DNA of 64,000 nt from Rhizobium sp. Q54 (lineage in GTDB: Bacteria; Pseudomonadota; Alphaproteobacteria; UBA828): the NCBI GenBank assembly GCA_945892755.1, contig CAMDDO010000004.1:3099-67098 (forward strand), read 5' to 3'. This document shows positions 32,941 to 60,409 of the stretch, piece after piece (positions within the stretch are counted from its first letter, which is position 1; each line of letters begins with the position of its first letter). The position numbers and the translations under genes are program-made. Below the pieces are notes generated by a model. The model had not been told where the DNA came from and made no database searches. It saw only the letters and a program-made list of their open reading frames with translations.

Positions 32941-33297
32941 ATGAAGGCCAAGCTGAGAAGCGAGCCGCGCCGCTTCACGCCGCTTGTGGGCCTCGAGATC
33001 CGCGACTGCGGCGCTATCGAGCTCGGTATCGACGAGCAGATCACGGTTACGACCGAGACGGGCATCGGCAACGACATCGTCCGCAAGGAGTGGGGCTTCT
33101 ACCTCTCGAACTCGCTGAACGCCAATCTCACCGCCAAGGGTTTCAAGACCGCGCTCGTCGTGAGCCATGCCAGCACCCCGCCGCGCACTTATCTCAACCT
33201 CGTCGAGCGCGACAAGATGGCGGCATTCGAGGCGTATCTGCGCGCGTTCAACGCGCGTGTCGCCTGTTGGCTCGACGAATGGCCGACCTCTGGTTGA
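32941..33297 (+). CDS. small (118-aa) uncharacterised protein, tandem paralog B
   Basis: Aligns colinearly with paralog A (VRKxWGxYxxxSLNAxLxxKG..xALV.....RxYxxLxE...xxxFxAYL.....xxxWLD). Confidence 0.5.
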   Translation: MKAKLRSEPRRFTPLVGLEIRDCGAIELGIDEQITVTTETGIGNDIVRKEWGFYLSNSLNANLTAKGFKTALVVSHASTPPRTYLNLVERDKMAAFEAYLRAFNARVACWLDEWPTSG

Positions 33298-33311
33298 GTT
33301 TGTAGAGAGAC

Positions 33312-35147: not shown

Positions 35148-35151
35148 CGCG

Positions 35152-36702: not shown

Positions 36703-36745
36703 TTCCTTTCGCGCCAATCGATGCGTCCCTCCAAGAGATTACGTC

Positions 36746-43771: not shown

Positions 43772-45744
43772 CGGCCGCAGACCAGAATCGGGTCGGGGCG
43801 ATTGTCGAGTCCGCCTTGGGTATGGACCACGCGATTGCCCGATTTGGCGAGGCCAATACGCTGATCTCGACAACGTCGCCGTTCGTGCTTGAGAAATGCC
43901 GAATTCTTGGGCGCCGCTGCTTCGCGATCGATGGTTCATTGCCGCAAGCCAAGGCCGATTCGATCGGTTACGCATCACTGCGCGCGACGAGCGATATCAC
44001 GGATCTCGTGGATTCCGCCGCGACAAGTGATGAGCCGCCCTTTGGTTGGGCCTTGCTGCCCCAGCTGCACCGGATGCTGACTGCCTTTCTTTACAAGGCC
44101 CATCTACTTGATCACGTGATGCGGGAGTGCGCGAATGACGGACGCTTGTGGACCGTCGGTCATTCCGAAGCGCGAGCGGTGCGCGGCTTCAACGTCATGA
44201 TCAACCGTTTCGACACGCTTTTTACAGTGCTGGGTGCACGGCGTGGCATTCCACATATCGGACTAGAAGCGCCAGAGCCGTCGGGCGCTGCTGAAACCGG
44301 CGATTTTATGCGGCCATCAATCTGGACTCGGATGGTCACTGTGATGAATGCGCCGGCGACGAGCGTGTTCTATCGGCTGTGGCGCGGGCCTCTGAAGGGT
44401 CGTGCCTTGGCGCTTGTGCCGGGGTGGAACCGTAATCCGATCGTTGTCGTGCACCGTGGCAACGAAATGATCGAAGAAATCCTACCGAGGCTTCTCTTGC
44501 GCGGCTGTGAAATTCGCCGCTTGCCGCGCTTGCATTCTACGTCCGACGAGGTTGATGCGCCCCCGACGGTCAGCCTCGAAGCCATCACGGCTCGGATTAA
44601 ACGCCGCTGTGTCGATGCCGAGTTAGGCTGGAGCGATACCCTCCAGATCGCGGCGATGCAGGCTGGGGAGCGCCTGCGCACGGCGTTGCGTCATGGTCCG
44701 AGCTTGTGGCGCTCCACCGAGGTTTGTGTCGAAGAATTGAAGCGCGACGCGCGCGGTCGGCCGCTCGGTCTTTTGACCAATGCCATGGCCAGTGGGCAAG
44801 AGCGCCTGCTGCGCCATGCGCTCGACCGACATGGTATTCAATCGTTCGTTGCAGAGCACGGCGTTGCGCCAGGTTTGAGCCCGATGCATGAAGCGCTCTA
44901 CGCCATCGACAAGGTGGCAAGCCTGCGGCGTACGCTGCTCTATACGCCGGCGCAACACCGTCTTTATGAGCGATCCATCGGCGTGGCGGAGGCGGCCAAT
45001 TGTCCGGTGGTTGGTGTGCCGCGCCTGGTTCGCAAAATCGGCATGCGGCCAATTCAGCGCGTCGCGGTGCGTGCCGCGCTCGGTGCCAAAGGTCGCCTCG
45101 CGATATGGTGCACCGCGCTTTATCCGAACAATTTTCAGTTTCTGCCGCATTATTGGCGTGACACGCCGTACCACGAAATAAGGCGTCGCGTGGTCACCGA
45201 CGTCTTTGGCAAAATTTCCGACCATGTCGTGCTCAAGCTCTACCCAACCTATCGCTATGTCGATCCTGATCCGCTTGCTGGGCTTATGACTCTACCGCCC
45301 AATTGTCGGGTCGAGCAATTCACCGATTTTCGCAATCTGCGCGCAGCGGCGGACCTGATTGTCGTCGATGGCCCCGGCAGTGTGATGGCGTGGGCGTGGA
45401 GCACGAATGTGCCGTTCATCTACCTCGAAACCGGCATGTATGGGCTCGACGCAACGGTGCGACAGGCGCTAGAACGCAGTGCCTTTGTGGTGGACGTCGC
45501 CGACCAGGATTGGGCGGACCGATTCTTGGCGTTGCTTCGGCTCGACCATAGGGCGCTGGTGGCGCGTTTCGCGGCAAAAAGCGCGGAGCGCGAGAGTTTC
45601 GCGACGGAATATGCGCTTGGTCCCAAGGGCGGGGCCGGCCGGCTGGGCAGTGCCTACATTCATGCGAGCTTGACGAAGCGAGAAGGACAGGGCGTGCAAA
45701 CGGTCGCGCTCAGCAACGAACCGCGCGCGGAACCGCGGTCATGA
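43768..45744 (+). CDS. large (658-aa) uncharacterised protein, possibly TagF/Capsule_synth-like transferase
   Basis: C-terminal LKLYPTYRYVD...IVVDGPGSVMAWAWSTNVPFIYLETG resembles the LYAPTWR region of CDP-glycerol glycerophosphotransferase-like GT-B enzymes. Weak. Confidence 0.4.
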   Translation: MTAADQNRVGAIVESALGMDHAIARFGEANTLISTTSPFVLEKCRILGRRCFAIDGSLPQAKADSIGYASLRATSDITDLVDSAATSDEPPFGWALLPQLHRMLTAFLYKAHLLDHVMRECANDGRLWTVGHSEARAVRGFNVMINRFDTLFTVLGARRGIPHIGLEAPEPSGAAETGDFMRPSIWTRMVTVMNAPATSVFYRLWRGPLKGRALALVPGWNRNPIVVVHRGNEMIEEILPRLLLRGCEIRRLPRLHSTSDEVDAPPTVSLEAITARIKRRCVDAELGWSDTLQIAAMQAGERLRTALRHGPSLWRSTEVCVEELKRDARGRPLGLLTNAMASGQERLLRHALDRHGIQSFVAEHGVAPGLSPMHEALYAIDKVASLRRTLLYTPAQHRLYERSIGVAEAANCPVVGVPRLVRKIGMRPIQRVAVRAALGAKGRLAIWCTALYPNNFQFLPHYWRDTPYHEIRRRVVTDVFGKISDHVVLKLYPTYRYVDPDPLAGLMTLPPNCRVEQFTDFRNLRAAADLIVVDGPGSVMAWAWSTNVPFIYLETGMYGLDATVRQALERSAFVVDVADQDWADRFLALLRLDHRALVARFAAKSAERESFATEYALGPKGGAGRLGSAYIHASLTKREGQGVQTVALSNEPRAEPRS

Positions 45745-46328
45745 GCGAGAAGCTTTATGCCGAACGTCTGGTCGGCGAACGGGTCGTGCTCAAGCGCCTG
45801 CACGAAGCGGCGGTTGACGAGGCCTATTTGCGCTGGATGAACGATCCCGAGGTAACACGCTATCTCCAGGCGCGCTTCGAGCCGCGTGACATGGCGAATT
45901 TGCGCGCCTTCGTGGCGGGATTCGATCATCGCGATCGCTTTATCTTCGGCGTCCACGCCGATGACCGATTCATCGGAACCGGCACGCTCCGAGTCAATCC
46001 GAACCATCGCTTCTCGAGTATCGGCTATTTGATCGGTGAAACGGACTATTGGCGCGGCGAGATCTCGCTGGATGTCTGCCGCACACTGCTCGATTTCGTC
46101 TTCTTCGAACGCAATGTAAGGAAAGTGGTCGAACCGACCACCGAGAATCACGTCGCCTCGAACTTCAATTTCAAGCGCCTGGGGTTCACGCTGACCGCGC
46201 GCATTCCTGACCTATACTGGGGCGGTGACCGCTATCACGCAGCGATCTATTGGTCGATGGCGATTGAGGAATGGGCGCGGCTGCGTGGTCGCGGAGTTCC
46301 AACGATACCCCATCCGGCCGTGGCATGA
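45741..46328 (+). CDS. GNAT-family acetyltransferase (RimL/PseH-like)
   Basis: GNAT fold, paralogous to 40859..41398. Confidence 0.7.
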   Translation: MSEKLYAERLVGERVVLKRLHEAAVDEAYLRWMNDPEVTRYLQARFEPRDMANLRAFVAGFDHRDRFIFGVHADDRFIGTGTLRVNPNHRFSSIGYLIGETDYWRGEISLDVCRTLLDFVFFERNVRKVVEPTTENHVASNFNFKRLGFTLTARIPDLYWGGDRYHAAIYWSMAIEEWARLRGRGVPTIPHPAVA

Positions 46329-47512: not shown

Positions 47513-49284
47513 TTGACCCGATGGCGCTAACCGCTGCCGCGCGTTCGGCGTTTCGGAGCGAGCTGCGCCATGACGCGAGGCTGATGAGCTATCTCAAGGC
47601 GCTCAAGCGCCTGCCTGAAGCGGGCGCCGCGCGCCGGGTGCTATTCGCGTCGTCCTACAGCGTGCGACCGCTCGAGCCCTATTTGTGCGTCGAGGCGGCC
47701 CTCGCGGGCTGGCGACTTGAGCCGCGATTTGTTGAATACGGCCAATGGCAGCAGGCGCTGATTGCGGGCTCGGGTGGGGCAGAGCCCGACGCCTATGTGC
47801 TCATGCTCCACCCGGAGAGTTTGCTCGCCGCCGCCGGCAACATGGCGACGCACATTGACGCTGCTGAAACTTCGATCGCCGCCGTGTTCCGCTCCTTCCG
47901 CGCACGCTCGAGGACGCCGTTCTTTGTGCTTCATCTGCCTCCGCCTCGACCGCTCGGCGCCATTGGTTTCGGCCAAGGCGGCACGCCGCGGCGTATCGAT
48001 GCGGCGACTGAGCTCTGCCATCGGATCGCGACGCTCGCGAAGAATCTTGATGCAACCTACGTGATCGATCTCTCGGCCACGCCAAAGGTTGCCGGCGCAT
48101 GGCAAGACGATAAGGGGCTTCAGGCCTCGTTATCACCCGTAGCGAGCCATGCCGCGCCCCTGATCGCCGAGGCTATTGCTCGCTCGGTCGCACCTTTGTT
48201 CCGGCCGCGCCGCAAGATTCTGGTTGTCGACCTCGACAACACGCTTTGGGGCGGCGTTGTCGGCGAAGTCGGCAGTGAGGGCGTGAGCCTCGGCGCGGGT
48301 TGGCCCGGGGCCGCCTATTTAGCGTTTCAGCGGATCATCCGTGAGCTCGGGGAAAGTGGCGTCTTGCTGGCGCTTAACAGCAAGAACAATGAATCCGATG
48401 CGCGCGCGGTGTTCGAAACGCGCACCGAGATGGTCCTGCAATGGAACGATTTCGCGGCGCGCCGTGTGAATTGGTGTGATAAGGCCGAAAATCTCGCGAG
48501 TATCGCCGATGAATTGTCGCTCGGGATCGAGAGTTTTGTGTTCGCCGACGATAGCCCCGTCGAATGCGCACGAATTCGAGCAGCATTTCCCGATGTCGAG
48601 GTGATCCAATTGTCCGACGACCCGACGGGGTTGGTCGAAGCATTGTTAGGCTGTCCGGGTTTTGACATGCTGAGCGTGACCGACGAAGACCGGGGGCGCA
48701 CGGAGAGCTACCGTTCGGAATCCGAACGAAGCGCGCTGCGCCAAACGACAGGAGATTACCGCGCGTTCCTGCGCTCCCTGTCCCTGGAGATCGACATCAC
48801 ACCCTGTGACGGTAGTTCATTGGAGCGTCTGCATCAGCTTTTGCTCAAGACGAATCAGTTCCATTTCACGCTCGAGCGACCGGCCAAAACCGAACTGGGC
48901 GCGCGGGCCAATCGGCTCTTCTCGGTACGTTTGCGCGATCGCTTTGGTGACTATGGCATCATCGGCGTGCTGGAGACCGCCGTGCGGCGCGATGCGGTCG
49001 AGATCGTCAATCTCGCGCTCAGCTGTCGCGCGTTGGGGCGTCTGGTCGAGGAAACGGTACTGGCGTTCGTCGCCGAAATCGCGCGTGCGACCGGTGTTGC
49101 GGCGCTCAGCGCCAGATCGGTGGTCGGGCCGCGCAACCAGCCGGCCCTCGATTTTCTCGACAAAGCCGGCTTCCGTCCGCACGGACCGGTACTTCGGCTA
49201 CCGATCGGTCCGGACGCTCCGGCCTATCCCGCCGAGGCGATGGTAAGCCGGCCCGAGCCGGTAATCTTGGAGCGTACATGTTAG
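47509..49284 (+). CDS. FkbH-like protein (HAD-superfamily IIIC phosphatase domain)
   Basis: KILVVDLDNTLWGGVVGEVG signature of the FkbH domain (glyceryl-ACP forming enzymes). Confidence 0.75.
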   Translation: MIDPMALTAAARSAFRSELRHDARLMSYLKALKRLPEAGAARRVLFASSYSVRPLEPYLCVEAALAGWRLEPRFVEYGQWQQALIAGSGGAEPDAYVLMLHPESLLAAAGNMATHIDAAETSIAAVFRSFRARSRTPFFVLHLPPPRPLGAIGFGQGGTPRRIDAATELCHRIATLAKNLDATYVIDLSATPKVAGAWQDDKGLQASLSPVASHAAPLIAEAIARSVAPLFRPRRKILVVDLDNTLWGGVVGEVGSEGVSLGAGWPGAAYLAFQRIIRELGESGVLLALNSKNNESDARAVFETRTEMVLQWNDFAARRVNWCDKAENLASIADELSLGIESFVFADDSPVECARIRAAFPDVEVIQLSDDPTGLVEALLGCPGFDMLSVTDEDRGRTESYRSESERSALRQTTGDYRAFLRSLSLEIDITPCDGSSLERLHQLLLKTNQFHFTLERPAKTELGARANRLFSVRLRDRFGDYGIIGVLETAVRRDAVEIVNLALSCRALGRLVEETVLAFVAEIARATGVAALSARSVVGPRNQPALDFLDKAGFRPHGPVLRLPIGPDAPAYPAEAMVSRPEPVILERTC

Positions 49285-49553
49285 TGGCACCTCCGCGGGA
49301 AGAAGTACGGCGAACTCTCGTCGATATATTCGTCACGGTTCTCGGCCTTCCGGAATCCGCAATCAGGGACGGGCTCTCGCCGGACAATTGCACGACGTGG
49401 GATTCGCTCCGCCATATCCAGCTGTGCACTGCGATCGATCAAAGCTTCGGCATTGCGCTCGATATCGCGCAGCAGGTCGAGATGCTGAATTTCGGCTTGG
49501 CGCTCGATACGGTGCTCCGCGCGCTGGAGCCGGCCGGTCCGAGGGAAAGGTGA
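49278..49553 (+). CDS. acyl carrier protein
   Basis: 91 aa, acidic, with DSL phosphopantetheine attachment motif (WDSLRHIQL). Confidence 0.65.
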   Translation: MLVAPPREEVRRTLVDIFVTVLGLPESAIRDGLSPDNCTTWDSLRHIQLCTAIDQSFGIALDIAQQVEMLNFGLALDTVLRALEPAGPRER

Positions 49554-49557
49554 TCGC

Positions 49558-50232
49558 ATGAGGCAGAGCGCCAACGCCGATGAGTTGATGTGGCGGATCT
49601 TCAATCAGTTCCACTATCACTGCGACACGCACAGATTCCAAAAGCTTCTGGCGCGCGCCGAGATGGTGCGACGTGTCGCCGACGTGCCGGGTGACATCGT
49701 CGATTGCGGCACGTTCAAGGGCATCAGCACGATCCAGTTCGCCCACTTTCTCGAGATTTATCGGCCGCATGGCCTCGCCAAAGTGGTCAGCTTCGATACC
49801 TTCGAAGCAATGTTCCCGCGCGTGCGCGCTGACGAAACGAAGAGCGCCAAGGAGCACATGGACAAGCTCTACGAAGAGCGTGCGCTCGATCAAATCACCG
49901 AGGCCGTTGGGCGGCTCAGCCTCGGCCATCGCGTCGAGATCATCAAGGGCGATATCGTCGAGACCCTGCCGGCATTCCTGGCCGACAAGCCGGGTTTCCG
50001 CATCAGCCTCCTGCATTGCGATCTCGACGTCTATGAGGCGACCAAGACGGTGCTCAAACTGGCCTGGCCGCGCGTCTCGCGCGGCGGTGTCGTGTTGTTC
50101 GACGAATATGCCGTGCGCAATTGGGGCGAATCGGACGCGGCGGACGAGTTCCTCGCCACGCTGCCCAATCCGCCGCGGCTGCGCACGCTCGACCGCACGC
50201 CGACCCCGACCGCCTATCTGATCAAGGAATAG
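49558..50232 (+). CDS. class I SAM-dependent O-methyltransferase (TylF/MycF macrocin-O-MT-like)
   Basis: GDIVDCGTFKGIST glycine motif and GGVVLFDEY acidic motif. Confidence 0.7.
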   Translation: MRQSANADELMWRIFNQFHYHCDTHRFQKLLARAEMVRRVADVPGDIVDCGTFKGISTIQFAHFLEIYRPHGLAKVVSFDTFEAMFPRVRADETKSAKEHMDKLYEERALDQITEAVGRLSLGHRVEIIKGDIVETLPAFLADKPGFRISLLHCDLDVYEATKTVLKLAWPRVSRGGVVLFDEYAVRNWGESDAADEFLATLPNPPRLRTLDRTPTPTAYLIKE

Positions 50233-50248: not shown

Positions 50249-51751
50249 ATGAAGTGGTTCAAGCAGGTCGAGGCCGGGCGGCGCGCCTATCACGCGGACG
50301 CCACGCTCAATAGCGTGCACCGCTCCTCGCTCCTTGTGCCGAGGCTCGATGGCGCGGCGGTCGATATCAGTTTCCTCAACCACTTCCTCCTGAAACGCGG
50401 CTATGGCGAGGTCGCCTGCCGCGTGACCAAAATCGACGGCGCCGGCAAGCGCATTCAATCTCGGTTTATCAAGGTCGACGCGCCAAGGGCGTATACGTTC
50501 GCACTCGGCGACGAGGCGCATGACGAGGCGGCCGACTTCATGGTCGAGTTTTTCGCCGCCGACAATCTGTTCATCCCGTTTCCCGCCGTGATGGTGAACC
50601 ATCGCGGCCCGCGCTTCCTCAACACCGTGCATGCCTATAATCGCGTGCTGAATGACGTGTTCGAGGACGACAGCATCAACACGAAGCCGCAGCTTGAGGC
50701 CGCGATCGATGTGCGCCTCGATGACGCGGCGTCGACCATGCTGGTGGTCCAGGCCGGGCAACAGCGCTGCGCGGGCGCGCTCGATATCCGGCTCAAACAG
50801 GGCGCGGCGGAGCATCGCAAGGACGTGCCGATCGATGTGCCGCGCTTCGGCCATCGGGAGATCGCGCTCGGCGATTTGTTCGCGCATCTGGGCACGATAC
50901 AGGGCGGCATTCTCACGGTCGGACAGCCCCAACAGACGATGTTTTTCGGGCGTCTTCTGGTTGGCCAGCGCGCGCGCGACGGCGCGTTCTCGGCCAATCA
51001 CAGTTATTATGATTCATCCGATGTCGCCGAATATTGGGACGATTCGCGACCCTCGATCAGGCTCTACCCCTATATCGCCGAGCTTGAGACCTTGATCCGG
51101 TTCTACCCGATCCAATCGCCCGGCCGGCTCAATATCGAGATCGTCGCTCATGGCGCGGATGGCGCGCGCCTGTCGACCCACGAGGCCGGCGAATTGGTTT
51201 CGCCCGGCACGCGCCATCTCGACCTATCGGTCAGCGGGCTTTTGCGCCGGCAGGGCGCGCGCGCCGCCGATGTCTCGGCCTTCGCCGTCAGCGCGCGCCC
51301 GATCGATGGCAAGACGCCGACACGCATCAACCATCAGCTCGTCTATCGCGATGGCGGGCTTGAATCATCGATCAACATGTCGCTGACCAATCCGAATATT
51401 TTCGCCCCCGCCGGCAAACGCGGCTATGCCTGGGGTCAGTTGCCGGTCGGGACGGCGATCGATTCGTGGCTCGGCATCACCACCAACACGCCCGAGGGCG
51501 AGGCGTGCGCCGTCGCGCTCTCGATCTATGACGAGAGCGGGCTCCGCGCGCGGCGCGACCTCTCCTTGCGTCCGGGCGCCGCCCATGTCCTCCGCCTGCA
51601 TGACATCTTGCCCGATGGCGCGCTCGCGCGCGCGGACACCGCGCTCGATTATCTCTGGTTCACGCTGGAATCAGCCCGGGCGGATGTGTTCGGCTATGCC
51701 GTCACCAGGCACAAGCTGTCGCGGCAATGCTCGGGCGAGCATGCGTTCTGA
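50249..51751 (+). CDS. hypothetical 500-aa protein, no recognisable domain
   Basis: Tightly packed between the O-MT and pseG; no known motifs. Confidence 0.5.
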   Translation: MKWFKQVEAGRRAYHADATLNSVHRSSLLVPRLDGAAVDISFLNHFLLKRGYGEVACRVTKIDGAGKRIQSRFIKVDAPRAYTFALGDEAHDEAADFMVEFFAADNLFIPFPAVMVNHRGPRFLNTVHAYNRVLNDVFEDDSINTKPQLEAAIDVRLDDAASTMLVVQAGQQRCAGALDIRLKQGAAEHRKDVPIDVPRFGHREIALGDLFAHLGTIQGGILTVGQPQQTMFFGRLLVGQRARDGAFSANHSYYDSSDVAEYWDDSRPSIRLYPYIAELETLIRFYPIQSPGRLNIEIVAHGADGARLSTHEAGELVSPGTRHLDLSVSGLLRRQGARAADVSAFAVSARPIDGKTPTRINHQLVYRDGGLESSINMSLTNPNIFAPAGKRGYAWGQLPVGTAIDSWLGITTNTPEGEACAVALSIYDESGLRARRDLSLRPGAAHVLRLHDILPDGALARADTALDYLWFTLESARADVFGYAVTRHKLSRQCSGEHAF

Positions 51752-51769: not shown

Positions 51770-52789
51770 ATGAACGCGCCGCTCGCGTTGTTTCGGCTTG
51801 ATGCGACGCCTTCGCTCGGCGTCGGCCATTTGGCGCGCTGCCACGTGCTGGCCGAGGCGTTGAAGGGAGAGGGCTGGCGCACGCGCTTCGCGGTCTCGGC
51901 CGAAACCGCGTCGAGCGTCGGCGCGCCGCGTGACGCGATCATCGTGCCACCCGAATCGATGGACGAGCCGCGCGCGCTTGGCGACGCGGAGCCAAAGGGA
52001 TGCGATCTTCTGGTGGTCGATCATTATGGCCGCGACGCGGCGTTCGAACGCGCCTGCCGGCCCTGGGCGCGGCATATTCTCGTGCTCGACGATCTGGCCG
52101 ATCGGGCCCACGACGCCGACGCTCTGCTCGACCCCACACCAGGCCGGAATCCGGCGGATTACGCCAACCTCGTGCGGACCGACACGCGCCTCCTGCTCGG
52201 GCCGAGCCATGCACTGCTCGACGCGCGCTTTGCCGCCGCCCGACCCATGGCGCTGGCGCGGCGTCGCGCGGGCGGTGCGGCCGCGCGCGTTCTCATCAGC
52301 CCGGGCGGCACCGATCCGGCCGATGTGGCGAGCCTCGCGCTCGATGCCCTTGTCGGCCTGGAGCCGGCGCTCGTCGCCGACGTGGCGCTGCTGCCGAGCG
52401 CGCCGCATCTTGCGCGCACGCGCGCACGCGTCGGACCGCGCGTCACCTTGCATTGTCCCGCCGAGGACATGGCGGCTTTGATGGTCGAGGCCGATGTCGC
52501 GATCGGCGCAGCGGGCGGCAGCGCCTGGGAGCGTTGCTGCCTCGGCCTGCCAATGCTGCTCGTCATCACGGCCGAGAATCAGCGGCTCAATGCGCGACGC
52601 CTGGAAGACGCAGGCGCCGCTCTTGTCGTTGGTGAGGCAAGCCACGTGACGGTTGAGAGCTTTCGCCGAGAGATCGTCGAGTTGGTGAGCGATGCGAGTC
52701 GCCGTCGACGCATGGCCGAAGCGGCGGCATTATTATGCGATGGCGAAGGCGTACGCCGCGTGCTCTCGATCATCAAGGAAGGCGTATGA
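51770..52789 (+). CDS. pseG: UDP-2,4-diacetamido-2,4,6-trideoxy-beta-L-altropyranose hydrolase
   Basis: FRLDATPSLGVGHLARCHVLAEAL N-terminus typical of PseG. MurG-like GT-B fold. Confidence 0.8.
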   Translation: MNAPLALFRLDATPSLGVGHLARCHVLAEALKGEGWRTRFAVSAETASSVGAPRDAIIVPPESMDEPRALGDAEPKGCDLLVVDHYGRDAAFERACRPWARHILVLDDLADRAHDADALLDPTPGRNPADYANLVRTDTRLLLGPSHALLDARFAAARPMALARRRAGGAAARVLISPGGTDPADVASLALDALVGLEPALVADVALLPSAPHLARTRARVGPRVTLHCPAEDMAALMVEADVAIGAAGGSAWERCCLGLPMLLVITAENQRLNARRLEDAGAALVVGEASHVTVESFRREIVELVSDASRRRRMAEAAALLCDGEGVRRVLSIIKEGV

Positions 52790-53847
52790 GCCTACCCTCG
52801 CTGCAGCCAGTCGCCATTGCCGGCCGCACCATCGGGCCCGGTTCGCCGCCTTACGTTGTTGCCGAACTCTCGGCCAACCACAAGGGCACGCTCGATCACG
52901 CCATCGCGATCATGCGCGCGGCCAAGGCGGCCGGGGCGGATGCGATCAAGCTGCAAACCTATACCGCGGATACCATCACGATCGCGCACAATGGCCCTGG
53001 CTTCCGCATCGAGCAGGGCCTATGGCGCGGCCGCACGCTGCATGAGCTTTATCAAGAGGCTCACACGCCATGGGTGTGGCATGACGCGCTGTTCGCGGAA
53101 GGCCGCGCGCTCGGCCTGCCGGTGTTCTCGACACCGTTCGATGCTAGCGCGATCGCCTTTCTCGAGCCTTTCGATCCGCCGGCCTACAAGATCGCGAGCT
53201 TCGAGCTGATCGATCTCGGTCTTATTCGCGCCGTCGCGGTGACTGGCAGGCCGCTCATCCTATCGACCGGCATGGCGAGTTATGCCGAAATCGAGGAAGC
53301 GGTCGGCGCTGCGCGCGGCGCGGGCGCGCGCCAGATCGTGCTTTTGCATTGCACCAGCGGTTATCCTACGCCGCCCGATGAGGCCAATCTCCGCACCATT
53401 CCGCATCTCGCCGAGAGCTTTGGCGTGCCGATCGGCCTGTCTGACCACACGCTCGGCATCGGCGTCGCGCTCGCCGCGGTGGCGCTCGGCGCCTGCCTGA
53501 TCGAGAAGCATTTGACGCTCCGCCGCGCCGATGGCGGGCCGGATGCCGCGTTCTCGCTCGAACCCGACGAACTCAAGAGCCTGGTCGACAATGCGCGCCT
53601 CGCTCATGCCGCGCTCGGCATGGTTACCTATGAGCGGCGCGCGAGCGAAGCCGGCAATATAGAATTTCGCCGCTCGCTCTATATCGTGCGCGACATGAAG
53701 GCCGGTGAACCGCTGACGCCCGAGACGCTGCGCTCGATCCGCCCGGGCCATGGCCTCCATCCGCGCCATTACGAGGCATTGCTCGGCAAGCGCGTGACGC
53801 GCGATGTCGCGCGCGGCACGCCGATGGCATGGGAATTGATCCGCTGA
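52786..53847 (+). CDS. pseI: pseudaminic acid synthase
   Basis: VVAELSANHKGTLDHA (PseI-type ELSANH motif), GLSDHT, C-terminal SAF domain. Confidence 0.9.
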   Translation: MSLPSLQPVAIAGRTIGPGSPPYVVAELSANHKGTLDHAIAIMRAAKAAGADAIKLQTYTADTITIAHNGPGFRIEQGLWRGRTLHELYQEAHTPWVWHDALFAEGRALGLPVFSTPFDASAIAFLEPFDPPAYKIASFELIDLGLIRAVAVTGRPLILSTGMASYAEIEEAVGAARGAGARQIVLLHCTSGYPTPPDEANLRTIPHLAESFGVPIGLSDHTLGIGVALAAVALGACLIEKHLTLRRADGGPDAAFSLEPDELKSLVDNARLAHAALGMVTYERRASEAGNIEFRRSLYIVRDMKAGEPLTPETLRSIRPGHGLHPRHYEALLGKRVTRDVARGTPMAWELIR

Positions 53848-54593
53848 TGGGCAAGACCGTCGCGATCATCCAGGCGCGCATGACCTCGAGCCGCCTACCC
53901 GGCAAGGTGCTGGCCGATCTCGGCGGCAAGCCGCTGATCGAGCGCATGATCGCGCGCGTGCGCCGCGCCCGCGCGCTGGACGCGATCTGGCTCGCTACCA
54001 CCGCCAAGACGACCGACGATCCGCTCGCGACCTTGTGCGACCGGCTCGGCGTACCCGTTCATCGCGGCGATGAGCATGATGTTCTGGCGCGCTTTCTCGG
54101 CGCCGCGCGGGCCGCCGAGGCCGATATCGTGGTCCGGCTCACGGCGGATTGTCCGATGAGCGACCCGGCGCTGATCGACGAGATCGTCGCCGATTATGGG
54201 AAGGGTGGCGCCGATTACGTCTCCAACGTGTTGGTGCGCACCTATCCCGATGGCCTCGACGTCGAGGTATTTTCATGCGCCGCGCTCGAAGACGCGGCGG
54301 CCAACGCGACGGAGCCGTTTCATCGCGAGCACGTCACGCCCTGGTTGCAAACCGGCTTTCGGCCCGGCTTGGCGACCGGGCGCTTTCGCGTGCGTCATGT
54401 CGTGAACGACATCGATCTCGGCGTCATGCGTTGGACGGTCGATGAGGCCGAGGATCTCGACTTAATTCGAAAGTTGTTCGCGGCCCTGCCCGAGGGCTTC
54501 GCCTGGCGCGACGCGCTCGCGCTGGTCAGCGTCAATGGCGAATTGGCCCGCCGCTCGCGCGTGCCCGAGGCTTATCTGAAGGCGGCGTCATGA
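53847..54593 (+). CDS. pseF: pseudaminic acid cytidylyltransferase-family protein (copy 3 of SpsF/PseF-like)
   Basis: VAIIQARMTSSRLPGKVL, directly after pseI. Confidence 0.7.
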   Translation: MGKTVAIIQARMTSSRLPGKVLADLGGKPLIERMIARVRRARALDAIWLATTAKTTDDPLATLCDRLGVPVHRGDEHDVLARFLGAARAAEADIVVRLTADCPMSDPALIDEIVADYGKGGADYVSNVLVRTYPDGLDVEVFSCAALEDAAANATEPFHREHVTPWLQTGFRPGLATGRFRVRHVVNDIDLGVMRWTVDEAEDLDLIRKLFAALPEGFAWRDALALVSVNGELARRSRVPEAYLKAAS

Positions 54594-56377
54594 AGGTCCG
54601 AGCGGTCATATGCGAGGACGCCGAGCGGCTCTTCGCCTGGTTGAACGCGCCCGATCGGCAAGCGGCGAGCCTGGCGACGAACGCGCCGGTCGCTTGGGCC
54701 GATCATCTGGCGTGGCTCGAGGCCCGGCTCGACGATCCGTGTAGCGCGCTCTGGATGGCGGAGATCGACGACAAGCCGGTCGGCCAGGCGCGATTGCAGT
54801 GGGTGGAGCCCGGGCTCGAAGTTTCGCTCTATGTCGCGCCTGAGGCACGCCGGCAGGGTGTCGGCCGCGCGTTGCTCAATCACGCGGCGCGGGCCGGGGC
54901 GCGTCTTTGGCCGGGCCGGGCGCTGCGTGCCAAGGTGCGTCCCGAGAACGCGGACTCGCTCGCGCTATTTCATCGCGCGGGCTATCGGGAAATCGCGCGC
55001 CCGCCCGATCATGTTTTGCTGAGCCTCGACCCCGCGCTCGATAACATGCCAATGCCAGCGCGCCGGTTCGGGCGTTCGCTCGCGCTGCATCAACGCGCGC
55101 TCGACACCATCCCGACCGGCTCGCAGACCTTCTCGAAATCGTCGTGGAATTTCGTCAAGGGCGCGACGCCTTTGATGCTCGAGCGCGGCGTGGGCGCGCG
55201 CGTGTGGGATGTGGACGGCAATGACTATGTCGATCATGTGCTTGGCCTGCTCGCGATCGTGCTCGGCTATCGCGATGCGACGGTCGATGGCGCGATCCGC
55301 GCGCAACTTGAGCGCGGCATCTCGTTCTCGCTCGCGACCGAGCTCGAAGCCGCGCTGGCCGAGCGCCTGCGCGCGCTCATTCCCTGCGCTGAAATGGCGC
55401 GCTTCGGCAAGAACGGGTCGGATGCCACCTCTGGGGCGGTTCGCCTCGCGCGCGCCCATACCGGGCGCGACAAGATCGCGTTGTCGGGCTATCACGGCTG
55501 GCATGATTGGTATATCGGCACCACCGCGCGCCGGCTCGGCGTGCCCGACGCGGTCCAGGCGCTTTCGACCAGCTTTCCCTTCAACGACGCCGATGCGCTT
55601 GAGCGGCTCTTGGTCGCCGAACCGAACGCCTATGCCGCGGTCATTCTCGAACCCGCCGGTATCGAGGCGCCGGCGCCAGGCTTTCTCGAACGCGTGCGCG
55701 CGCTGACCGAGCGTTTTGGCGTGGTCTTGGTATTCGACGAGATCATCACCGGCTTTCGCGTCGCGCTCGGCGGCGCGCAAAAGCATTACAATGTAGTGCC
55801 CGATCTCGCCTGTGTCGGCAAGGCGATGGGCAATGGCATGCCGATCTCGGCGGTGGTCGGTCGCAAGGCGATCATGCGGCGCATGGAGGATATCTTCTTC
55901 TCCGGCACGTTCGGCGGCGAGACGCTCTCGCTCGCCGCCGCGCTCGCCACCATCGATGCGCTCGAACGCCAAGACGGCATCGCGCGGATGCACGCGCTTG
56001 GCGCACGATTGCGCGCTGCGCTTGGCGCTCTCTTGACGCGGCATGGGCTGAGCCAGGCATTCAAGGCGACCGGTCCCGATTGGTGGCCGCGCCTCGCCGT
56101 CATGCCCGACGAGCGTACGCCGGGGCCCGTTCTGCAAAGCTTGATGCAACAGGAATTGGCCGAGGACGGTGTCCTGATCGGCGCCGGGCTCACGCTCAAC
56201 CTCTGCCTCGCCCACGATCACCCGGCGATCGAGGCGATGACGCTCGCGTCCTTCGATCGCGCCATGGCGCGCTGCGCCGAGGCGTTGGCGCGGCCCGATC
56301 CGGCGACGGCGCTACGCGGCGAACCCATCCGGCCGATCTTCCAGGTGCGGCCGATCCGACCGGCGACGCGCGCCTGA
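54590..56377 (+). CDS. GNAT acetyltransferase :: class-III aminotransferase (glutamate-1-semialdehyde aminomutase/HemL-like) fusion
   Basis: N-terminal ~140 aa GNAT (RRQGVGRALL). C-terminal FGKNGSDATSGAVRLARAHTGRDKI, VFDEIITGFRV, DLACVGKAMGNGMPISAV match the HemL family. Confidence 0.8.
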   Translation: MKVRAVICEDAERLFAWLNAPDRQAASLATNAPVAWADHLAWLEARLDDPCSALWMAEIDDKPVGQARLQWVEPGLEVSLYVAPEARRQGVGRALLNHAARAGARLWPGRALRAKVRPENADSLALFHRAGYREIARPPDHVLLSLDPALDNMPMPARRFGRSLALHQRALDTIPTGSQTFSKSSWNFVKGATPLMLERGVGARVWDVDGNDYVDHVLGLLAIVLGYRDATVDGAIRAQLERGISFSLATELEAALAERLRALIPCAEMARFGKNGSDATSGAVRLARAHTGRDKIALSGYHGWHDWYIGTTARRLGVPDAVQALSTSFPFNDADALERLLVAEPNAYAAVILEPAGIEAPAPGFLERVRALTERFGVVLVFDEIITGFRVALGGAQKHYNVVPDLACVGKAMGNGMPISAVVGRKAIMRRMEDIFFSGTFGGETLSLAAALATIDALERQDGIARMHALGARLRAALGALLTRHGLSQAFKATGPDWWPRLAVMPDERTPGPVLQSLMQQELAEDGVLIGAGLTLNLCLAHDHPAIEAMTLASFDRAMARCAEALARPDPATALRGEPIRPIFQVRPIRPATRA

Positions 56378-57282
56378 TGGACGAGCCTCGCCCGACCTGG
56401 CTCAGCCTCGGCACGGCCGGGCTCGGCATGGATTACGGCGTTGTCGCGCCGACCAGGCAACCTTCCGATGCGACGGCGCACGCATTGCTTGAGCGCGCCT
56501 GGGCCCTCGGTATTCGCTCGATCGACACCGCGCGCGCCTATGGCGAGGCCGAGGCTCGCATTGGGTCGTGGAGTGGGCGTTCGGGGAATCGGCCCTTCAT
56601 CGTGACCAAGATTCCCGCCCTCCCTGACAACGGCGGCGAACGCATCATCGAGCAATCGCTGCAGGCCTCACTCGCGGCGTTGCGCGCCGATCGGGTTGAG
56701 CTCTGCCTGCTGCACCGCGCGGGTGACCTCCATCGACCCGGCATCGCCGCCAAACTGCGTGAGATTGCCAGCAATGACCTCATCGGCGGTTTCGGTGTAT
56801 CCATCTATGAAGGCGCTGAGATTGAAGCAGCCCTCAGTATTGAAGGGCTCGCCGCGGTTCAGGCGCCGGTCAGCCTCTTGGACCGCCGGCTTGTCGAGTC
56901 GGGAGTGCTGGGGCGGGCCAAGGCGCGTGGCGTTCTCGTTTTCGCGCGCAGCGTGTTTCTCCAGGGGGCCTTGTTTGTCGCTCCAGAAAAATTGCCCTCG
57001 TTCCTCCGCCCGCTCGCCGAACCCTTGTCGCGCTTGACCACGCTTGCCGAGAGCTCGGGCGTCTCACCCATGGCCTTGTCACTTGCCTATTTGCGCGCAA
57101 GCGGCGTGATCGACTCGCTGGTGATCGGCGCGACGACATCCGAAGAGCTCGAAGCGGATGTGCGGCTGGCGAACCAATCCTTAGACCCAGAGCTGATTGA
57201 AAGGGCGTGCGCCATCGTACAGATCGTTGACCCTGCCTGCCTCGACCCGCGCCGCTGGCCGGCGTCGATCGCCGTCCCATGA
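56377..57282 (+). CDS. aldo/keto reductase
   Basis: LDTARAYG, AKR TIM-barrel layout. Confidence 0.8.
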   Translation: MDEPRPTWLSLGTAGLGMDYGVVAPTRQPSDATAHALLERAWALGIRSIDTARAYGEAEARIGSWSGRSGNRPFIVTKIPALPDNGGERIIEQSLQASLAALRADRVELCLLHRAGDLHRPGIAAKLREIASNDLIGGFGVSIYEGAEIEAALSIEGLAAVQAPVSLLDRRLVESGVLGRAKARGVLVFARSVFLQGALFVAPEKLPSFLRPLAEPLSRLTTLAESSGVSPMALSLAYLRASGVIDSLVIGATTSEELEADVRLANQSLDPELIERACAIVQIVDPACLDPRRWPASIAVP

Positions 57283-57316: not shown

Positions 57317-60300
57317 ATGCGATCAAACATGAAGACGAATTTGACGCCCCTGCCGCCCGAAGTCCGAAACATGTCGATTCCGTCCGCCGATGTGCTTGGT
57401 CGGCTGGTCTATGTCGTCGGCAGCGCGCGCGGCGGTACCACCATGCTCGGCGAATGTGTCGCACTCCACGATCGCATTCTCGCTTTGCCGGAGAACAGTA
57501 ATTTTCTCGGCCAAGTCTGGCGTTATGCGCGCAAAGTGGACGACCGCATGCTACGCCTGCTCATCGCGCAGCCGCGTTACTATAAGCGGCGAGAAGCGAT
57601 GGCACGGCTTGGCGACAGCGCGGGTCGCGCGCTTCTGGGTCACATTACGCGCTTGGTCAGGCAACGCGACCTCGCCGGCCTCTACACGCTGTACCCGATC
57701 GTCCATGCGCTTGTCGGCGAGGAAGGTCGCGATATCGGCGCGCTCCGTGCCTGGGCAGACAAAGCGACGGATACCAGGGGCCTAGGCGCGCTCGAGCGGG
57801 CCTTCCCCGAGCTTCGCGTCGTCTTTATCGTGCGTGACCCGAGAGCCTGCGTCGCTTCTTTGACGGCGAGAGCCTTCGCACGCGAGGCGCGCGAGCAGGG
57901 GTCCGACCGGCTCGACCTCCTCGTGGACCAGGCCCTTCATTGGCGCCGGGTAACCCAGGACATGCTTCACCATGCGCGCCGTCTTGGCTCGCGCGCCATT
58001 ACAGTGCGCTACGAAGATTTCGTTCGAGAGCCGGTCGAGCAGCTTAACCGTATCTTCGAGTTCGCCGTCGGCGAGAGACTATCGGCCGCCGAGCTGGAAC
58101 GGCAGCTCGGCGGTATCCCTTATTTCGCCAGCGCCAGCGGCGGCGCCTGCGCGACAGGCATCAGGACCGACTCGATCGACCGCTGGCGTAAGACCCTGCA
58201 GGACGATGAGCAGGGCCTGATCGAGGCGCTCTGCGGGCGCCTCGCGCGCCAACTTGGTTACGACACGTCCTCGGTCTCGCCGCTCGTCACGGCAGTTCGA
58301 CTGGGCCGAGTCGAGCAGTCACGCCGGCAAAAGCTCCTTGCTTTCGCCAGACTCGGCTATCTGGCTATCAGCGTGCCGATCAAGCTCCGAAGCCCGCTTC
58401 GGGCCGACACGTTCGCCATGCTGCCTTTGCCCGATCGAAAGCCGCGCCCGGCCGAGCAACCTCAGCCACCACGAAATGTCCGTGAGTCGAGCCCGGTGTC
58501 GCCCGCCGCTCCGCCGCCCGAAACGGCGGCTCGCGAACGCCCGTCTATCCGTCGGATCTTGGACTTTGCTAACGATATCGGATTGCCCCGAGCCCGCGTC
58601 GCCGTCCTCCTGCTGTTTCATTTGGTCGGAACTTTGTTCGAGAGTTTCGGTCTTGGCATGTTGCTGCCGGTCTTTGATCTAATCCAGAAAGGCGGCGACG
58701 CGTCCGCGCTTGCGGCACAGTCGAGCCTTTGGCGCGTGATCGTTGGCGTCTATGGCGCCTTCGGGCTCGACGCTAGCCTGCTGGCGCTACTGATTACGAG
58801 TTTCCTTGCCATCTTGGCGCGCCAGGCGATGTTTTATGTCCGGATGCTCTACACCGCAAGGGCATCCCTCGCAATTGGGCGCACCATCCGGACACGTGTG
58901 TTTGGCGGTATCCTTGGCGCACGCTTGGCGGTTCTTGAAGGCGATCGGCGCGGTCATATTTTGAACGACATCACGACCGAGGCCGATCGAACCACGCAAT
59001 ATGCCATCAGTGTCATTGCGCTGGGCGGCCATCTGGTTTTGGGATTGGTCTATTTCGTCATGATGCTGCTGCTGTCGCCATCGATGACCGGCGCCGCAGT
59101 CGCCGTCCTGGCGGTCGCCGCCCTGCCGGCGGTACGGTTGACGCGGCATTCCGCGACGGTGAGCCGCGACATCGTCGATGCCAATCGCGCGCTAATCGAC
59201 TTCTTCGCCCAGCGATTAAGTGCCATTCGTTTCGTTCGGCTCAGTGGCGCCGAGACCGCCGAACGGGCGGAGCTCGACCGTCGAGTGACCCGTCAGAACA
59301 AGCGCGTCTATCAAAGCAACGTACTGCTTGCCCGCACCAAGGTGGTGATCGAGCCGATCGTTGTTGCCGCAGCTTTCGTCTTCCTGTTTGTCGGATATTC
59401 CGTGTTTGGTGTCGGCCTCGAAGAGCTCGGGCTGTTCTTACTAATCCTGCTCCGATTGGTGCCAGTCATGCGCGAGGTAATGATCTTGCGTAGTGGCATG
59501 GCGCTGACTCGACATAGTCTAGTGACGCTGCAGCGTCGTTTCAGCGCGCTGGATCAGTCTCCCGAGGACGCGGGCGGCACGCGTGCGCTTGGCGTGCTCC
59601 GCCAAGGCATCCGCTTTGAGCACGTATCGTTCAGCTATGGGACCACCGCCGCGCCCGCGCTTAATGACGTCAGCGTGACCCTACCTGCGCGGCGCTTGAC
59701 CGCCCTGGTCGGTCCCTCGGGCAGCGGCAAGTCGACCTTGATCGATTTGTTGCCGCGCTTGCGCGAGCCGACCGGGGGCGTCGTGCTGTTCGATGGCATC
59801 CCCGCGTCGGAGTTTTCGTTACAGAGCCTTCGCGCGGGGATCGCCTATGCGCCGCAATCGCCGCAACTGTTCGATACCACGGTCATTGAGCATATCCGCT
59901 ATGGTCGGCCTGACGCGAGCGTTGCCGACATTGAACAGGCGGCCCGGCATGCGGGCGCTCATGATTTCATCGCCGCCCTGCCAATGGGCTATGAGACCAG
60001 GCTTGGCGAGAGCGGTGGTTTGCTTTCGGGCGGGCAGCGCCAGCGCGTCGATCTCGCGCGCGCGCTGGTCAAGAACGCGAGCGTGCTCATTCTCGACGAG
60101 CCGACCAGCCAGCTCGACGCCGAATCGGAGGAAATCTTCAAGGCCAGCATTCGGCGCCTTCGTGACGCCGGCCAGCACACGATCGTCATGGTCGCGCATC
60201 GCCTGTCGACCGCGGCGATTGCCGATCAAATCGTCGTCCTGATCCGGGGCTGTGTCGTCGATGTCGGATCGCACCGCGAATTGCTGGTGCGTGGCGGCTG

Positions 60301-60409
60301 GTATGCCGAAGCCAACCGCCTACAGCAGAATGACAATTTCGGAGAGCTTGGTGCTTCGGCGGAATTTGGCGGCGCGGCCGGCATTGGCCGAGGCCGTCCG
60401 TTTCTATAG
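57317..60409 (+). CDS. sulfotransferase :: ABC exporter (6 TM + ATPase) fusion protein
   Basis: N-terminal 5'-PSB VVGSARGGTTML and 3'-PB RDPRACVAS PAPS-binding motifs, Pro-rich linker, TM domain. Then Walker [36 protein letters not shown]. Confidence 0.8.
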   Translation: MRSNMKTNLTPLPPEVRNMSIPSADVLGRLVYVVGSARGGTTMLGECVALHDRILALPENSNFLGQVWRYARKVDDRMLRLLIAQPRYYKRREAMARLGDSAGRALLGHITRLVRQRDLAGLYTLYPIVHALVGEEGRDIGALRAWADKATDTRGLGALERAFPELRVVFIVRDPRACVASLTARAFAREAREQGSDRLDLLVDQALHWRRVTQDMLHHARRLGSRAITVRYEDFVREPVEQLNRIFEFAVGERLSAAELERQLGGIPYFASASGGACATGIRTDSIDRWRKTLQDDEQGLIEALCGRLARQLGYDTSSVSPLVTAVRLGRVEQSRRQKLLAFARLGYLAISVPIKLRSPLRADTFAMLPLPDRKPRPAEQPQPPRNVRESSPVSPAAPPPETAARERPSIRRILDFANDIGLPRARVAVLLLFHLVGTLFESFGLGMLLPVFDLIQKGGDASALAAQSSLWRVIVGVYGAFGLDASLLALLITSFLAILARQAMFYVRMLYTARASLAIGRTIRTRVFGGILGARLAVLEGDRRGHILNDITTEADRTTQYAISVIALGGHLVLGLVYFVMMLLLSPSMTGAAVAVLAVAALPAVRLTRHSATVSRDIVDANRALIDFFAQRLSAIRFVRLSGAETAERAELDRRVTRQNKRVYQSNVLLARTKVVIEPIVVAAAFVFLFVGYSVFGVGLEELGLFLLILLRLVPVMREVMILRSGMALTRHSLVTLQRRFSALDQSPEDAGGTRALGVLRQGIRFEHVSFSYGTTAAPALNDVSVTLPARRLTALVGPSGSGKSTLIDLLPRLREPTGGVVLFDGIPASEFSLQSLRAGIAYAPQSPQLFDTTVIEHIRYGRPDASVADIEQAARHAGAHDFIAALPMGYETRLGESGGLLSGGQRQRVDLARALVKNASVLILDEPTSQLDAESEEIFKASIRRLRDAGQHTIVMVAHRLSTAAIADQIVVLIRGCVVDVGSHRELLVRGGWYAEANRLQQNDNFGELGASAEFGGAAGIGRGRPFL

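Follow-up and report, generated by a model that had tools for sequence, protein, structure and literature searches.

A fused acetyltransferase::class III aminotransferase gene in a pseudaminic-acid operon and its possible part in making tri-amino nonulosonic acids

The 64,000-nucleotide stretch analysed here (the window: Rhizobium sp. Q54, assembly GCA_945892755.1, contig CAMDDO010000004.1, positions 3,099 to 67,098 of the forward strand) carries at 54590..56377, on the + strand, a gene that joins a GNAT-type acetyltransferase to a class III aminotransferase dependent on pyridoxal phosphate (PLP). What does the fused protein do? In our estimate there is an even chance that it is a bifunctional enzyme of the surrounding pseudaminic-acid (Pse) biosynthesis operon. 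Judged by its sequence, the aminotransferase domain is not glutamate-1-semialdehyde aminomutase (HemL), which it resembles; it belongs to a conserved, widespread and uncharacterised family that appears specific to nonulosonic-acid loci. The reading that we favour, and hold to be about equally probable to be right or wrong, is that an oxidoreductase and the class III aminotransferase would turn a hydroxyl of Pse into a third amine, which a GNAT would then acylate; the reaction, its position and its timing are what we infer. The fusion itself represents an uncommon domain arrangement of a module that is widespread and uncharacterised, and it stays within sugar chemistry of known kinds.

The earlier note had described a GNAT fused to a HemL-type class III aminotransferase, with a stop that overlaps the start of an aldo/keto reductase (AKR) gene, and both observations hold. 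The gene is a single open reading frame (ORF) of 595 aa plus stop, from an ATG at 54590 to a TGA at 56375-56377, and its third-position GC of 0.81 is as high as in true genes of the window, whose overall GC is 64%. In Pfam, the N-terminal part matches Acetyltransf_1 (aa 34-132, E 1e-14), Acetyltransf_3 (aa 4-133) and also Acetyltransf_7, and the C-terminal part matches Aminotran_3 (PF00202; aa 193-485, E 8e-49, 166.8 bits vs a cutoff of 30.5). The PseH-like GNAT domain (aa 1-150, 54590..55039, +), with the acetyl-CoA motif RRQGVGRA at aa 87-94 (nt 54848-54871), is followed by a linker of about aa 151-157 (55040..55060, +) and by the aminotransferase domain (aa 158-595, 55061..56374, +). In an AlphaFold model built on 20 fused homologues both domains are folded confidently, with a mean predicted local distance difference test score (pLDDT) of 83.8; pLDDT falls below 50 at aa 151-154, and the last 11 residues are disordered. 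Could a frameshift or a misassembly have produced the fusion? This was ruled out, because the identical protein is present on six contigs (the four contigs shown come from four different samples) and the GNAT plus Aminotran_3 architecture is common to 21 protein clusters with 53-84% identity.

The gene is tightly packed between its neighbours. Its ATG overlaps by 4 nt (ATGA) the stop of an upstream CTP_transf_3 cytidylyltransferase gene (53847..54593, +; 108 bits in Pfam), a presumed CMP-nonulosonate synthetase, and its stop overlaps by 1 nt (TGATG) the ATG of the AKR gene (56377..57282, +; Aldo_ket_red PF00248, 99 bits vs 24). By these overlaps the fusion is predicted to be translationally coupled to both. 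In the related locus L008 the homologous GNAT and aminotransferase are separate genes with a 4-nt overlap. The upstream gene had been named pseF in the earlier note, a name that we withdraw: it scores 21.5 bits on the PseF model TIGR03584, far under the cutoff of 205.7, so it is no canonical PseF, and in NCBIfam it is closest to KdsB/SpsF-like subfamilies. It probably does the job of PseF, as its context and the genetics of SpsF suggest. There is genetic evidence for SpsF as a nonulosonate-activating enzyme in B. subtilis (PMC7439481).

Is the C-terminal domain a HemL? Its best NCBIfam matches are glutamate-1-semialdehyde aminomutase models, and its closest solved structures are HemL enzymes at about 200 bits (3k28, 203 bits, in a PDB search), followed by FumI (6hbs) and the GenB C-6' aminotransferases (7lm0, 7lld) at 145-170 bits. 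Many databases also label its relatives 'glutamate-1-semialdehyde 2,1-aminomutase'. These names speak for a housekeeping HemL fortuitously joined to an acetyltransferase, but we give that explanation next to no probability. Every HemL model scores under its cutoff (TIGR00713, 250.1 vs 527.3 bits; PRK00062, 250.4 vs 398; PRK12389, 216.7 vs 637; PRK06209, 357.6 vs 486), and identity to E. coli HemL is 32% in the alignment. In HemL the loop after YHG is a lid that retains the diamine intermediate, and the arginine of NSPVRAF binds the substrate carboxylate, as seen in the structures of the aminomutase. In the fusion this loop is 11 residues shorter than that of E. coli HemL (YHGWHDWYIGTTARRLGVP vs a 28-letter HemL segment), and NSPVRAF gives way to TQTFSKS, with the Arg replaced by Lys; the family motif at aa 178-184 reads SQTFSKS. 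A C-terminal tail of about 35 residues is conserved in the family, and E. coli HemL ends before it; the tail ends in the family-specific motif LRGEPIRPIFQVR (56312..56350, +; alignment), and R576, G577, F584 and R587 of this extension are invariant across the fused homologues. What the domain shares with HemL is the fold-type I class III superfamily and the catalytic residues: the PLP lysine K411 (nt 55820-55822) in GKAMGNG and D383 in FDEIITGFR, the aspartate motif FDE(I/V)xTGFR, both align with HemL, and the YHG motif is present as YHGWHDWY at aa 301-308. With an Aminotran_3 domain, the Schiff-base lysine and the aspartate that faces the PLP pyridine, the domain is by its sequence a class III (fold-type I) PLP aminotransferase.

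The gene context leads away from heme as well. We define the family by the motifs (T/S)QT(F/L)(S/A)K and YHGWHDW(Y/F), the short lid loop, the tail L(R/K)GxP(I/V)xP(I/V)F and neighbouring genes for a NeuB-type synthase and a CTP_transf_3 protein, and the fusion has all of them: motifs, loop, tail and neighbours. A database search gave hundreds of stand-alone relatives of about 435 aa, 60-67% identical, as well as longer proteins of about 690 aa in which CTP_transf_3 is part of the chain. In species-representative genomes a scan confirmed 598 relatives; the counts by context that follow cover the best 80 of these at species level (L009-L088; L numbers denote loci throughout). They are found in Alphaproteobacteria, Bacteroidota, Ignavibacteriota, Chloroflexota, Acidobacteriota, Actinomycetota, Planctomycetota and Spirochaetota, and also in Thaumarchaeota and Aenigmatarchaeota; the family as a whole reaches more than 10 phyla, and its carriers in culture include Agaricicola taiwanensis, Roseobacter sp. 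HKCCD7870 and Hymenobacter. In 51 of the 80 loci the aminotransferase sits in a cassette linked to a short-chain dehydrogenase/reductase (SDR), with a NeuB-type synthase (48 loci), a cytidylyltransferase (41), a GT-B-like protein (40), a HAD phosphatase (38), a fatty-acid-hydroxylase-family protein (33) and a split transketolase (32); PseB/PseC, the fusion-type GNAT and AKR were not detected in any of these 51. Another 14 loci have a Pse context with PseB/PseC, among them 13 with NeuB, 10 with a cytidylyltransferase (4 of them fused to the aminotransferase) and 7 with an AKR, which is present in L008 too. The other 15, many on short contigs, are unclassified, neither context being assignable. 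No heme genes were noticed in any locus examined, and in the window the setting of the gene is wholly one of sugar biosynthesis.

In a neighbour-joining tree HemL stands on a long branch outside the whole aminotransferase family, the SDR-linked members form one tight clade, and the domain of the window clusters with the alphaproteobacterial Pse-locus members L005-L008. That the closest relatives are alphaproteobacterial is a further point against a housekeeping HemL, since Alphaproteobacteria generally make 5-aminolevulinate via 5-aminolevulinate synthase and so need no HemL. The doubt about a role in heme synthesis, which the earlier note had raised together with the idea of a phylogeny against HemL, is thus borne out. 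The accompanying proposal of an isomerisation fares worse, because with the HemL lid loop missing an aminomutase-type reaction is unlikely. For heme-pathway reconstruction, the frequent annotation of relatives as 'glutamate-1-semialdehyde aminomutase' is misleading. A more distant paralogue, 38% identical, lies on plasmid pNGR234b of Sinorhizobium fredii NGR234 (L089, 14001-15293). It has no Pse genes nearby and stands outside any nonulosonic-acid context; because it too has the short lid loop, together with part of the C-terminal tail, the non-HemL 'PRK06209-like' group must be broader than the sugar-locus family. Rhizobial K-antigen loci were considered as carriers of the family and dropped: tblastn of a plasmid collection gave just 36-44% matches, and the NGR234 match is this distant paralogue.

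There is a further question, which step of the pathway such an aminotransferase serves. Its fusion partners give an indication. Architectures were counted among the best 150 of the family in an exhaustive search of 1.84 billion 50%-identity representatives. The aminotransferase stands alone in 94, and a cytidylyltransferase is fused in front of it in 28, plus one in which the aminotransferase match is split in two. The other partners are a GFO/Idh/MocA oxidoreductase (P0250, P0260, P0289), the same oxidoreductase followed by a cytidylyltransferase (P0261), a C-terminal SDR (P0303), NeuB (P0253) and a PseB-like protein (P0292). A GNAT joined directly to the aminotransferase is rare, with 3 of the 150 representatives and two different GNAT subtypes: the type seen in the window in two (P0005, the cluster of the window, and P0244) and the other type in one (P0282). 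In one more protein the other GNAT type precedes a cytidylyltransferase and the aminotransferase (P0335). Related loci shuffle the same parts. A cytidylyltransferase::aminotransferase is followed by a GNAT in L005; in L006 the GNAT is joined to the cytidylyltransferase and the aminotransferase is separate; L007 and the window have a cytidylyltransferase and then GNAT::aminotransferase; and in L008 AKR, cytidylyltransferase, GNAT and aminotransferase are all separate genes. Read in this way, the partners would add up to a pathway made of a synthase, a dehydrogenase, the aminotransferase, an acyltransferase and an activating enzyme.

A dehydrogenase followed by an aminotransferase is the standard logic for turning a hydroxyl into an amine, as in WbpB/WbpE/WbpD, NtdC/NtdA and KdnB/KdnA, the last of which make 8-amino-Kdo in Shewanella by acting on the tail of an ulosonic acid. 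The order proposed here, oxidise, transaminate and N-acetylate, is like theirs, and the GFO::aminotransferase fusions P0250, P0261 and P0289 agree with it. Unlike here, the aminotransferases of the WbpE, NtdA and KdnA modules are, as far as is known, of the DegT/aspartate-aminotransferase type and not class III; no structure named KdnA or WbpE is among the 60 best PDB matches listed. In the window, moreover, the aminotransferase has an AKR as its partner, and its substrate is presumed to be a 5,7-diamino acid with nine carbons. GenB (7lm0, 7lld) and the FumI aminopentol aminotransferase (6hbs) are likewise HemL-like class III enzymes, and they introduce an amino group at the aldehyde or ketone of a carbohydrate or polyol, but they serve secondary-metabolite pathways in another gene context and have none of the family-specific motifs.

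In the proposed scheme, an oxidoreductase would oxidise a hydroxyl of the nine-carbon sugar to a ketone, which the aminotransferase would then transaminate. The oxidoreductase would be the translationally coupled AKR in the window and a GFO/Idh/MocA or SDR enzyme elsewhere, and the amination would take place around the time when the SpsF-like cytidylyltransferase activates the sugar. By pathway chemistry, the C4 and C8 hydroxyls would be available, as newly formed or free exocyclic groups, only after the NeuB condensation, which would fit fusions to NeuB and to the cytidylyltransferase and not to PseB, PseC or PseG. C8 is the favoured site, because oxidation of the 9-deoxy sugar there would give a methyl ketone, the favoured substrate type of class III transaminases, with C4 as the alternative. 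A 5,7,8-triamino sugar would result, to be N-acylated by a GNAT. The predicted amination role is well supported by comparative genomics, with fusions to GFO and SDR dehydrogenases in its favour, so that the amination part of the earlier proposal stands. The AKR itself has an intact catalytic tetrad Asp-Tyr-Lys-His as read from its sequence (IDTARAYG, VTK, LLHR), which together with the translational coupling counts for it as the partner. A tailoring cassette that includes the AKR had also been anticipated, in agreement with its place adjacent to or near the aminotransferase in about half of the related Pse loci and with the fusion of an SpsF-like cytidylyltransferase to an AKR that is known from a Pse cluster of Vibrio (PMC7371886).

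Might the aminotransferase act earlier, on a nucleotide-hexose or free hexose, as an alternative to or paralogue of PseC or at another hexose carbon? An AKR and the aminotransferase come directly after PseB and PseC in L021, L046 and Aeromonas, and the PseB-like::aminotransferase fusion P0292 points the same way. Nevertheless, we consider this quite improbable. The window has a canonical PseC above its cutoff, and the aminotransferase is fused most often to the cytidylyltransferase, with which the pathway ends; it is also known joined to NeuB. Pathway chemistry is also unfavourable: hexose C3 becomes the ring-forming C6, so amination at C3 would block the pyranose.

Do tri-amino sugars of this kind exist? 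The O-antigen of Tenacibaculum maritimum contains 5-acetamido-7-(3-hydroxybutyramido)-8-amino-3,5,7,8,9-pentadeoxynonulosonic acid (PMC3210612). In Magnetospirillum gryphiswaldense, fragmentation of CMP-ulosonic acids shows the loss of ammonia plus two N-acetyl groups (preprint 10.64898/2026.04.20.719630). The masses fit C15-17H25-29N3O8, with three nitrogens, by formulas that we computed, and the smallest of these ulosonic acids equals Pse5Ac7Ac plus exactly C2H3N, which is the difference between OH and NHAc. A third candidate was set aside: in Aeromonas hydrophila AH-1 the 403-Da flagellin Pse derivative gives fragments one mass unit off acetylated Pse, which is suggestive, but the strain is assigned no more closely than to 'Group I or III' and the composition is not settled, so it is not usable as a link.

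Several observations weigh against the third-amine reading. AKRs normally act as reductases, and use as an oxidant is atypical for them. In the alphaproteobacterial loci L005, L006 and L009 no recognisable oxidoreductase was found near the aminotransferase. The SDR-linked cassette falls into a clade of its own, and its substrate may be another one. Where the aminotransferase is missing, the GNAT of the fused type is the only GNAT in three of four Pse-like loci sampled (L091-L093), and therefore the fusion may link steps that are not consecutive. The literature searched holds no characterised family member and mentions such genes only as unknowns. The aminotransferase gene could not be placed in any organism with a structurally defined tri-amino sugar; the paper on the O-antigen cluster of T. 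maritimum is without detail on nonulosonic-acid genes, and nothing specific came from further searching of the literature. Finally, the Magnetospirillum masses are isobaric with a form carrying acetimidoyl plus O-acetyl groups, and the authors of that work propose a C10 backbone (preprint 10.64898/2026.04.20.719630).

The habit of AKRs to favour reduction leads to a different picture, in which the aminotransferase runs in the deaminating direction or is a PLP epimerase. After N-deacetylation, the C5 or C7 amine would be removed or inverted, the AKR would reduce the ketone, and after re-acetylation by the GNAT the sugar would be a hydroxy or epimeric form. PIG-L deacetylases adjoin the aminotransferase in L005, L006, L007, L010, L014 and L026, and the class III relatives count epimerases and racemases among them, with the GenB-type 6'-epimerase 9au3 and isoleucine 2-epimerase among the PDB matches. 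On the other hand, no deacetylase is seen near the fusion in the window, the SDR-linked cassette has no other source of a removable amino group, and if a hydroxy sugar were the product, PseC with a later deamination would be superfluous. We therefore think this picture very doubtful. As a separate observation, PIG-L deacetylase and/or formyltransferase genes accompany the Pse loci L005, L006, L007, L009, L010, L011, L014 and L026, which may make N-formyl or free-amine Pse variants. A deacetylase/formyltransferase pair of Kuenenia has been tied to CMP-nonulosonic acids with one free and one formylated amine (2026 preprint 10.64898/2026.04.20.719630).

What is then the substrate of the fused GNAT? 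Its best NCBIfam family is TIGR03585, PseH, at 41.2 bits vs a cutoff of 93.1 and over model positions 9-137 of 156. The same model is matched by 17 of 17 aligned GNATs of the fused type (the domain of the fusion and 16 homologues; best E 5.9e-12), and a profile of this family matches C. jejuni PseH 4xpk with 40.5 bits. For the second GNAT type, which sits right after PseC in related loci, 6 of 9 aligned members match the PseH model and the profile matches H. pylori PseH 4ri1 with 36 bits; the copy in the window (45741-46328) matches no NCBIfam family at E <= 0.001. Both types fall under the PseH cutoff, each matching a different PseH crystal structure. Like PseH (C. jejuni Cj1313, 4xpk; H. pylori HP0327, 4ri1), the fused domain is a small GNAT of about 150 aa with PseH as its best curated family, its acetyl-CoA motif is present, and its locus has PseB, PseC, PseG and PseI above their cutoffs. 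Unlike PseH, it scores 41 vs 93 bits, shares its operon with a second PseH-like GNAT and is joined to an aminotransferase, a fusion not described for PseH. From its sequence we regard it as a PseH-type acetyltransferase, whose target would be either the new amine or the 4-amino UDP-sugar of the canonical PseH step.

The ordinary PseH role has several observations on its side. In four Pse-like loci, where no Aminotran_3 is present over a distance of 9 kb, a stand-alone GNAT of the fused type comes immediately after NeuB, and three of the four are those mentioned above in which it is the only GNAT. The type is joined to PseG in L010 (its other partner, in L006 and L016, is the cytidylyltransferase), and it was not detected in 9 of 22 Pse-context loci nor in any of the 51 SDR-linked ones. 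For a coupling with the aminotransferase count the independent fusion of both GNAT types to it. Moreover, among 20 Pse-context loci that carry the aminotransferase, 13 have an extra N-acyl or N-formyl transferase beyond the PseH candidate. An acylation of the aminotransferase product by the fused GNAT is plausible, and the coupled amination and N-acylation of the earlier note is left with the two independent fusions in its favour, the PseH-like character of the domain and its lone occurrence in those loci against it.

If the GNAT is a plain PseH acting on UDP-4-amino-4,6-dideoxy-L-AltNAc, the two fused steps would not be consecutive, and the aminotransferase might build or modify an N-acyl side chain with no amination of the backbone. 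For example, it could convert a keto-acyl substituent or a keto acid into an amino-acyl group, or supply an unusual amino acid to an ATP-grasp ligase. The distribution of the fused GNAT type and its fusion to PseG favour this explanation, the aminotransferase is found together with ATP-grasp ligases and PIG-L deacetylases in L005, L006, L007, L009 and L014, and the window has acyl-donor genes for MaoC::SDR, FkbH and an acyl carrier protein (ACP). We still find it unlikely. The 51 SDR-linked loci are without ATP-grasp ligase, deacetylase or GNAT, and the family member is the only aminotransferase there, so that backbone amination is the simplest conserved role. In addition, fusions to GFO, SDR, NeuB and cytidylyltransferase point to the sugar as the substrate, and the deacetylase and formyltransferase genes can be explained separately by tailoring at the level of the CMP-sugar, as in Kuenenia. 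The amino-acyl substituent that had been suggested for this gene gained no specific support.

Returning to the third-amine reading, a wider scenario can be drawn, which we offer tentatively and rate somewhat below even. It would be an unrecognised module acting on a nine-carbon sugar, from NeuB through an oxidoreductase, the aminotransferase and a GNAT to an SpsF-like cytidylyltransferase, and would make tri-amino nonulosonic acids such as the 5,7,8-triamino-3,5,7,8,9-pentadeoxy form. A sister clade of the aminotransferase, spread over more than 50 species (Bacteroidota, Ignavibacteriota, Chloroflexota and others), would in this scenario produce another amino-ulosonic acid, perhaps one destined for a lipid head group. 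If true, the module would account for the 8-amino sugar of Tenacibaculum, an orphan so far, for the CMP-ulosonic acids with three nitrogens from Magnetospirillum and, once confirmed, for the way in which tri-amino nonulosonic acids arise. Pseudaminic and legionaminic acids decorate flagella, capsules and lipopolysaccharides and shape motility, phage attachment and immune recognition. To our knowledge, their diversity consists of acyl groups on two nitrogens. An enzyme set adding a third amine would be a new axis of nonulosonic-acid diversity, because the amine alters the charge of the sugar and adds an acylation site, and a YHGWHDW aminotransferase beside NeuB would be a genetic marker to predict tri-amino sugars from genomes.

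Genes of the same description occur in the glycosylation loci of pathogens, Aeromonas and Legionella, so the hypothesis is directly testable there. The group I flagellin glycosylation islands of Aeromonas list a 'class III aminotransferase' and an 'alpha/keto reductase' of unassigned function among the pse genes, and by published description they are alike in having pseB, pseC, AKR, cytidylyltransferase, aminotransferase, pseG and pseI (PMC7874193). The O-antigen cluster of Legionella pneumophila serogroup 6/12 has a 'glutamate-1-semialdehyde aminomutase', a GNAT, PseG, a cytidylyltransferase and an aryl-alcohol dehydrogenase, with function unassigned (PMC3694923). In these clusters, compared by description only, GNAT and aminotransferase are separate genes, whereas in the window they form one polypeptide. 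For class III aminotransferases, SpsF or AKR in pseudaminic acid loci, the literature gave gene lists and no biochemical characterisation was found.

The SDR-linked cassette deserves a description of its own. It occurs in Bacteroidota, Ignavibacteriota, Chloroflexota, Myxococcota and others (for example L027, 8142-16294; L050, 7095-14300; L090, 8198-18739). Besides the aminotransferase and the SDR, its genes encode a GT-B-like protein and an SpsF-like cytidylyltransferase, a split pair resembling transketolase/DXS, a NeuB homologue that lacks the SAF domain, a HAD-IIIA phosphatase and a member of the fatty-acid-hydroxylase family. The copy on a Methylomagnum plasmid adjoins LplT, a GNAT N-acyltransferase and a lysophospholipid acyltransferase. 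The cassette may make an amino-ulosonic acid for a lipid head group.

The fusion lies near the 3' end of an island of 37 kb (about 22989-60409) with all genes on the + strand, flanked by the housekeeping genes pyrB, gatA and gatB upstream and by a fatty-acid desaturase and PrpD downstream. The distal part of the island is the pseudaminic-acid operon, in which the genes from PseB to the exporter overlap or nearly abut throughout. All on the + strand, it encodes PseB (41449-42522; TIGR03589, 514 bits, cutoff 408), PseC (42548-43771; TIGR03588, 464 bits, cutoff 424), PseG (51770-52789; TIGR03590, 206 bits, cutoff 154) and PseI (52786-53847; TIGR03586, 475 bits, cutoff 340). The second PseH-like GNAT (45741..46328, +; Acetyltransf_3 in Pfam) lies beside an acyl-donor cassette, the two together covering 45741-50232; the cassette has a MaoC dehydratase::SDR fusion resembling acetoacetyl-CoA reductase (46325-47512, +), an FkbH-domain protein (47509-49284, +) and an ACP of 91 aa with a DSL motif (49278-49553, +), followed by a TylF-like O-methyltransferase (49558-50232, +). 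This cassette suggests 3-hydroxybutyryl and (O-methyl)glyceroyl N-acyl substituents on the sugar.

Two conserved proteins that recur in related Pse loci, of 658 aa (43768-45744) and 500 aa (50249-51751), have no match in Pfam, NCBIfam or PDB. Homologues of the first follow PseC or PseG in L005, L006, L009 and L016, and one of the second is found in L012; both are candidate glycosyltransferases or polymerases for a Pse-containing product. Directly after the AKR gene, 57329-60409 encodes a 1026-aa fusion of a Sulfotransfer_3 sulfotransferase to a complete MsbA/HepA-like ABC exporter, the two being separate adjoining genes in L008. No flagellar genes are among the window ORFs scanned, and the fused exporter may point to a sulfated, exported glycoconjugate instead of flagellin glycosylation.

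Upstream in the same island, 22989-41398 holds a second nonulosonic-acid pathway. Its NeuB-like synthase (22989-24077) scores 260 and 198 bits, under both the NeuB and the PseI cutoffs, and is not clearly one or the other. Also in the pathway are a methyltransferase, a WecD-like GNAT and an epimerase/dehydratase, two each of AsnB-type amidotransferases (24080, 33312), GFO oxidoreductases and DegT aminotransferases, and a further pair of SpsF/KdsB-like cytidylyltransferases (31806, 36692). Its last part, 36692-41398, is a module that recurs in L026 and L046: a cytidylyltransferase, a GFO oxidoreductase, a DegT aminotransferase, an unknown protein of about 370 aa and a GNAT. The module gives the impression of a further set, non-homologous to the first, that would oxidise, transaminate and acetylate and is attached to a CMP-sugar synthetase; in L026 the cytidylyltransferase and GFO domains are one protein.

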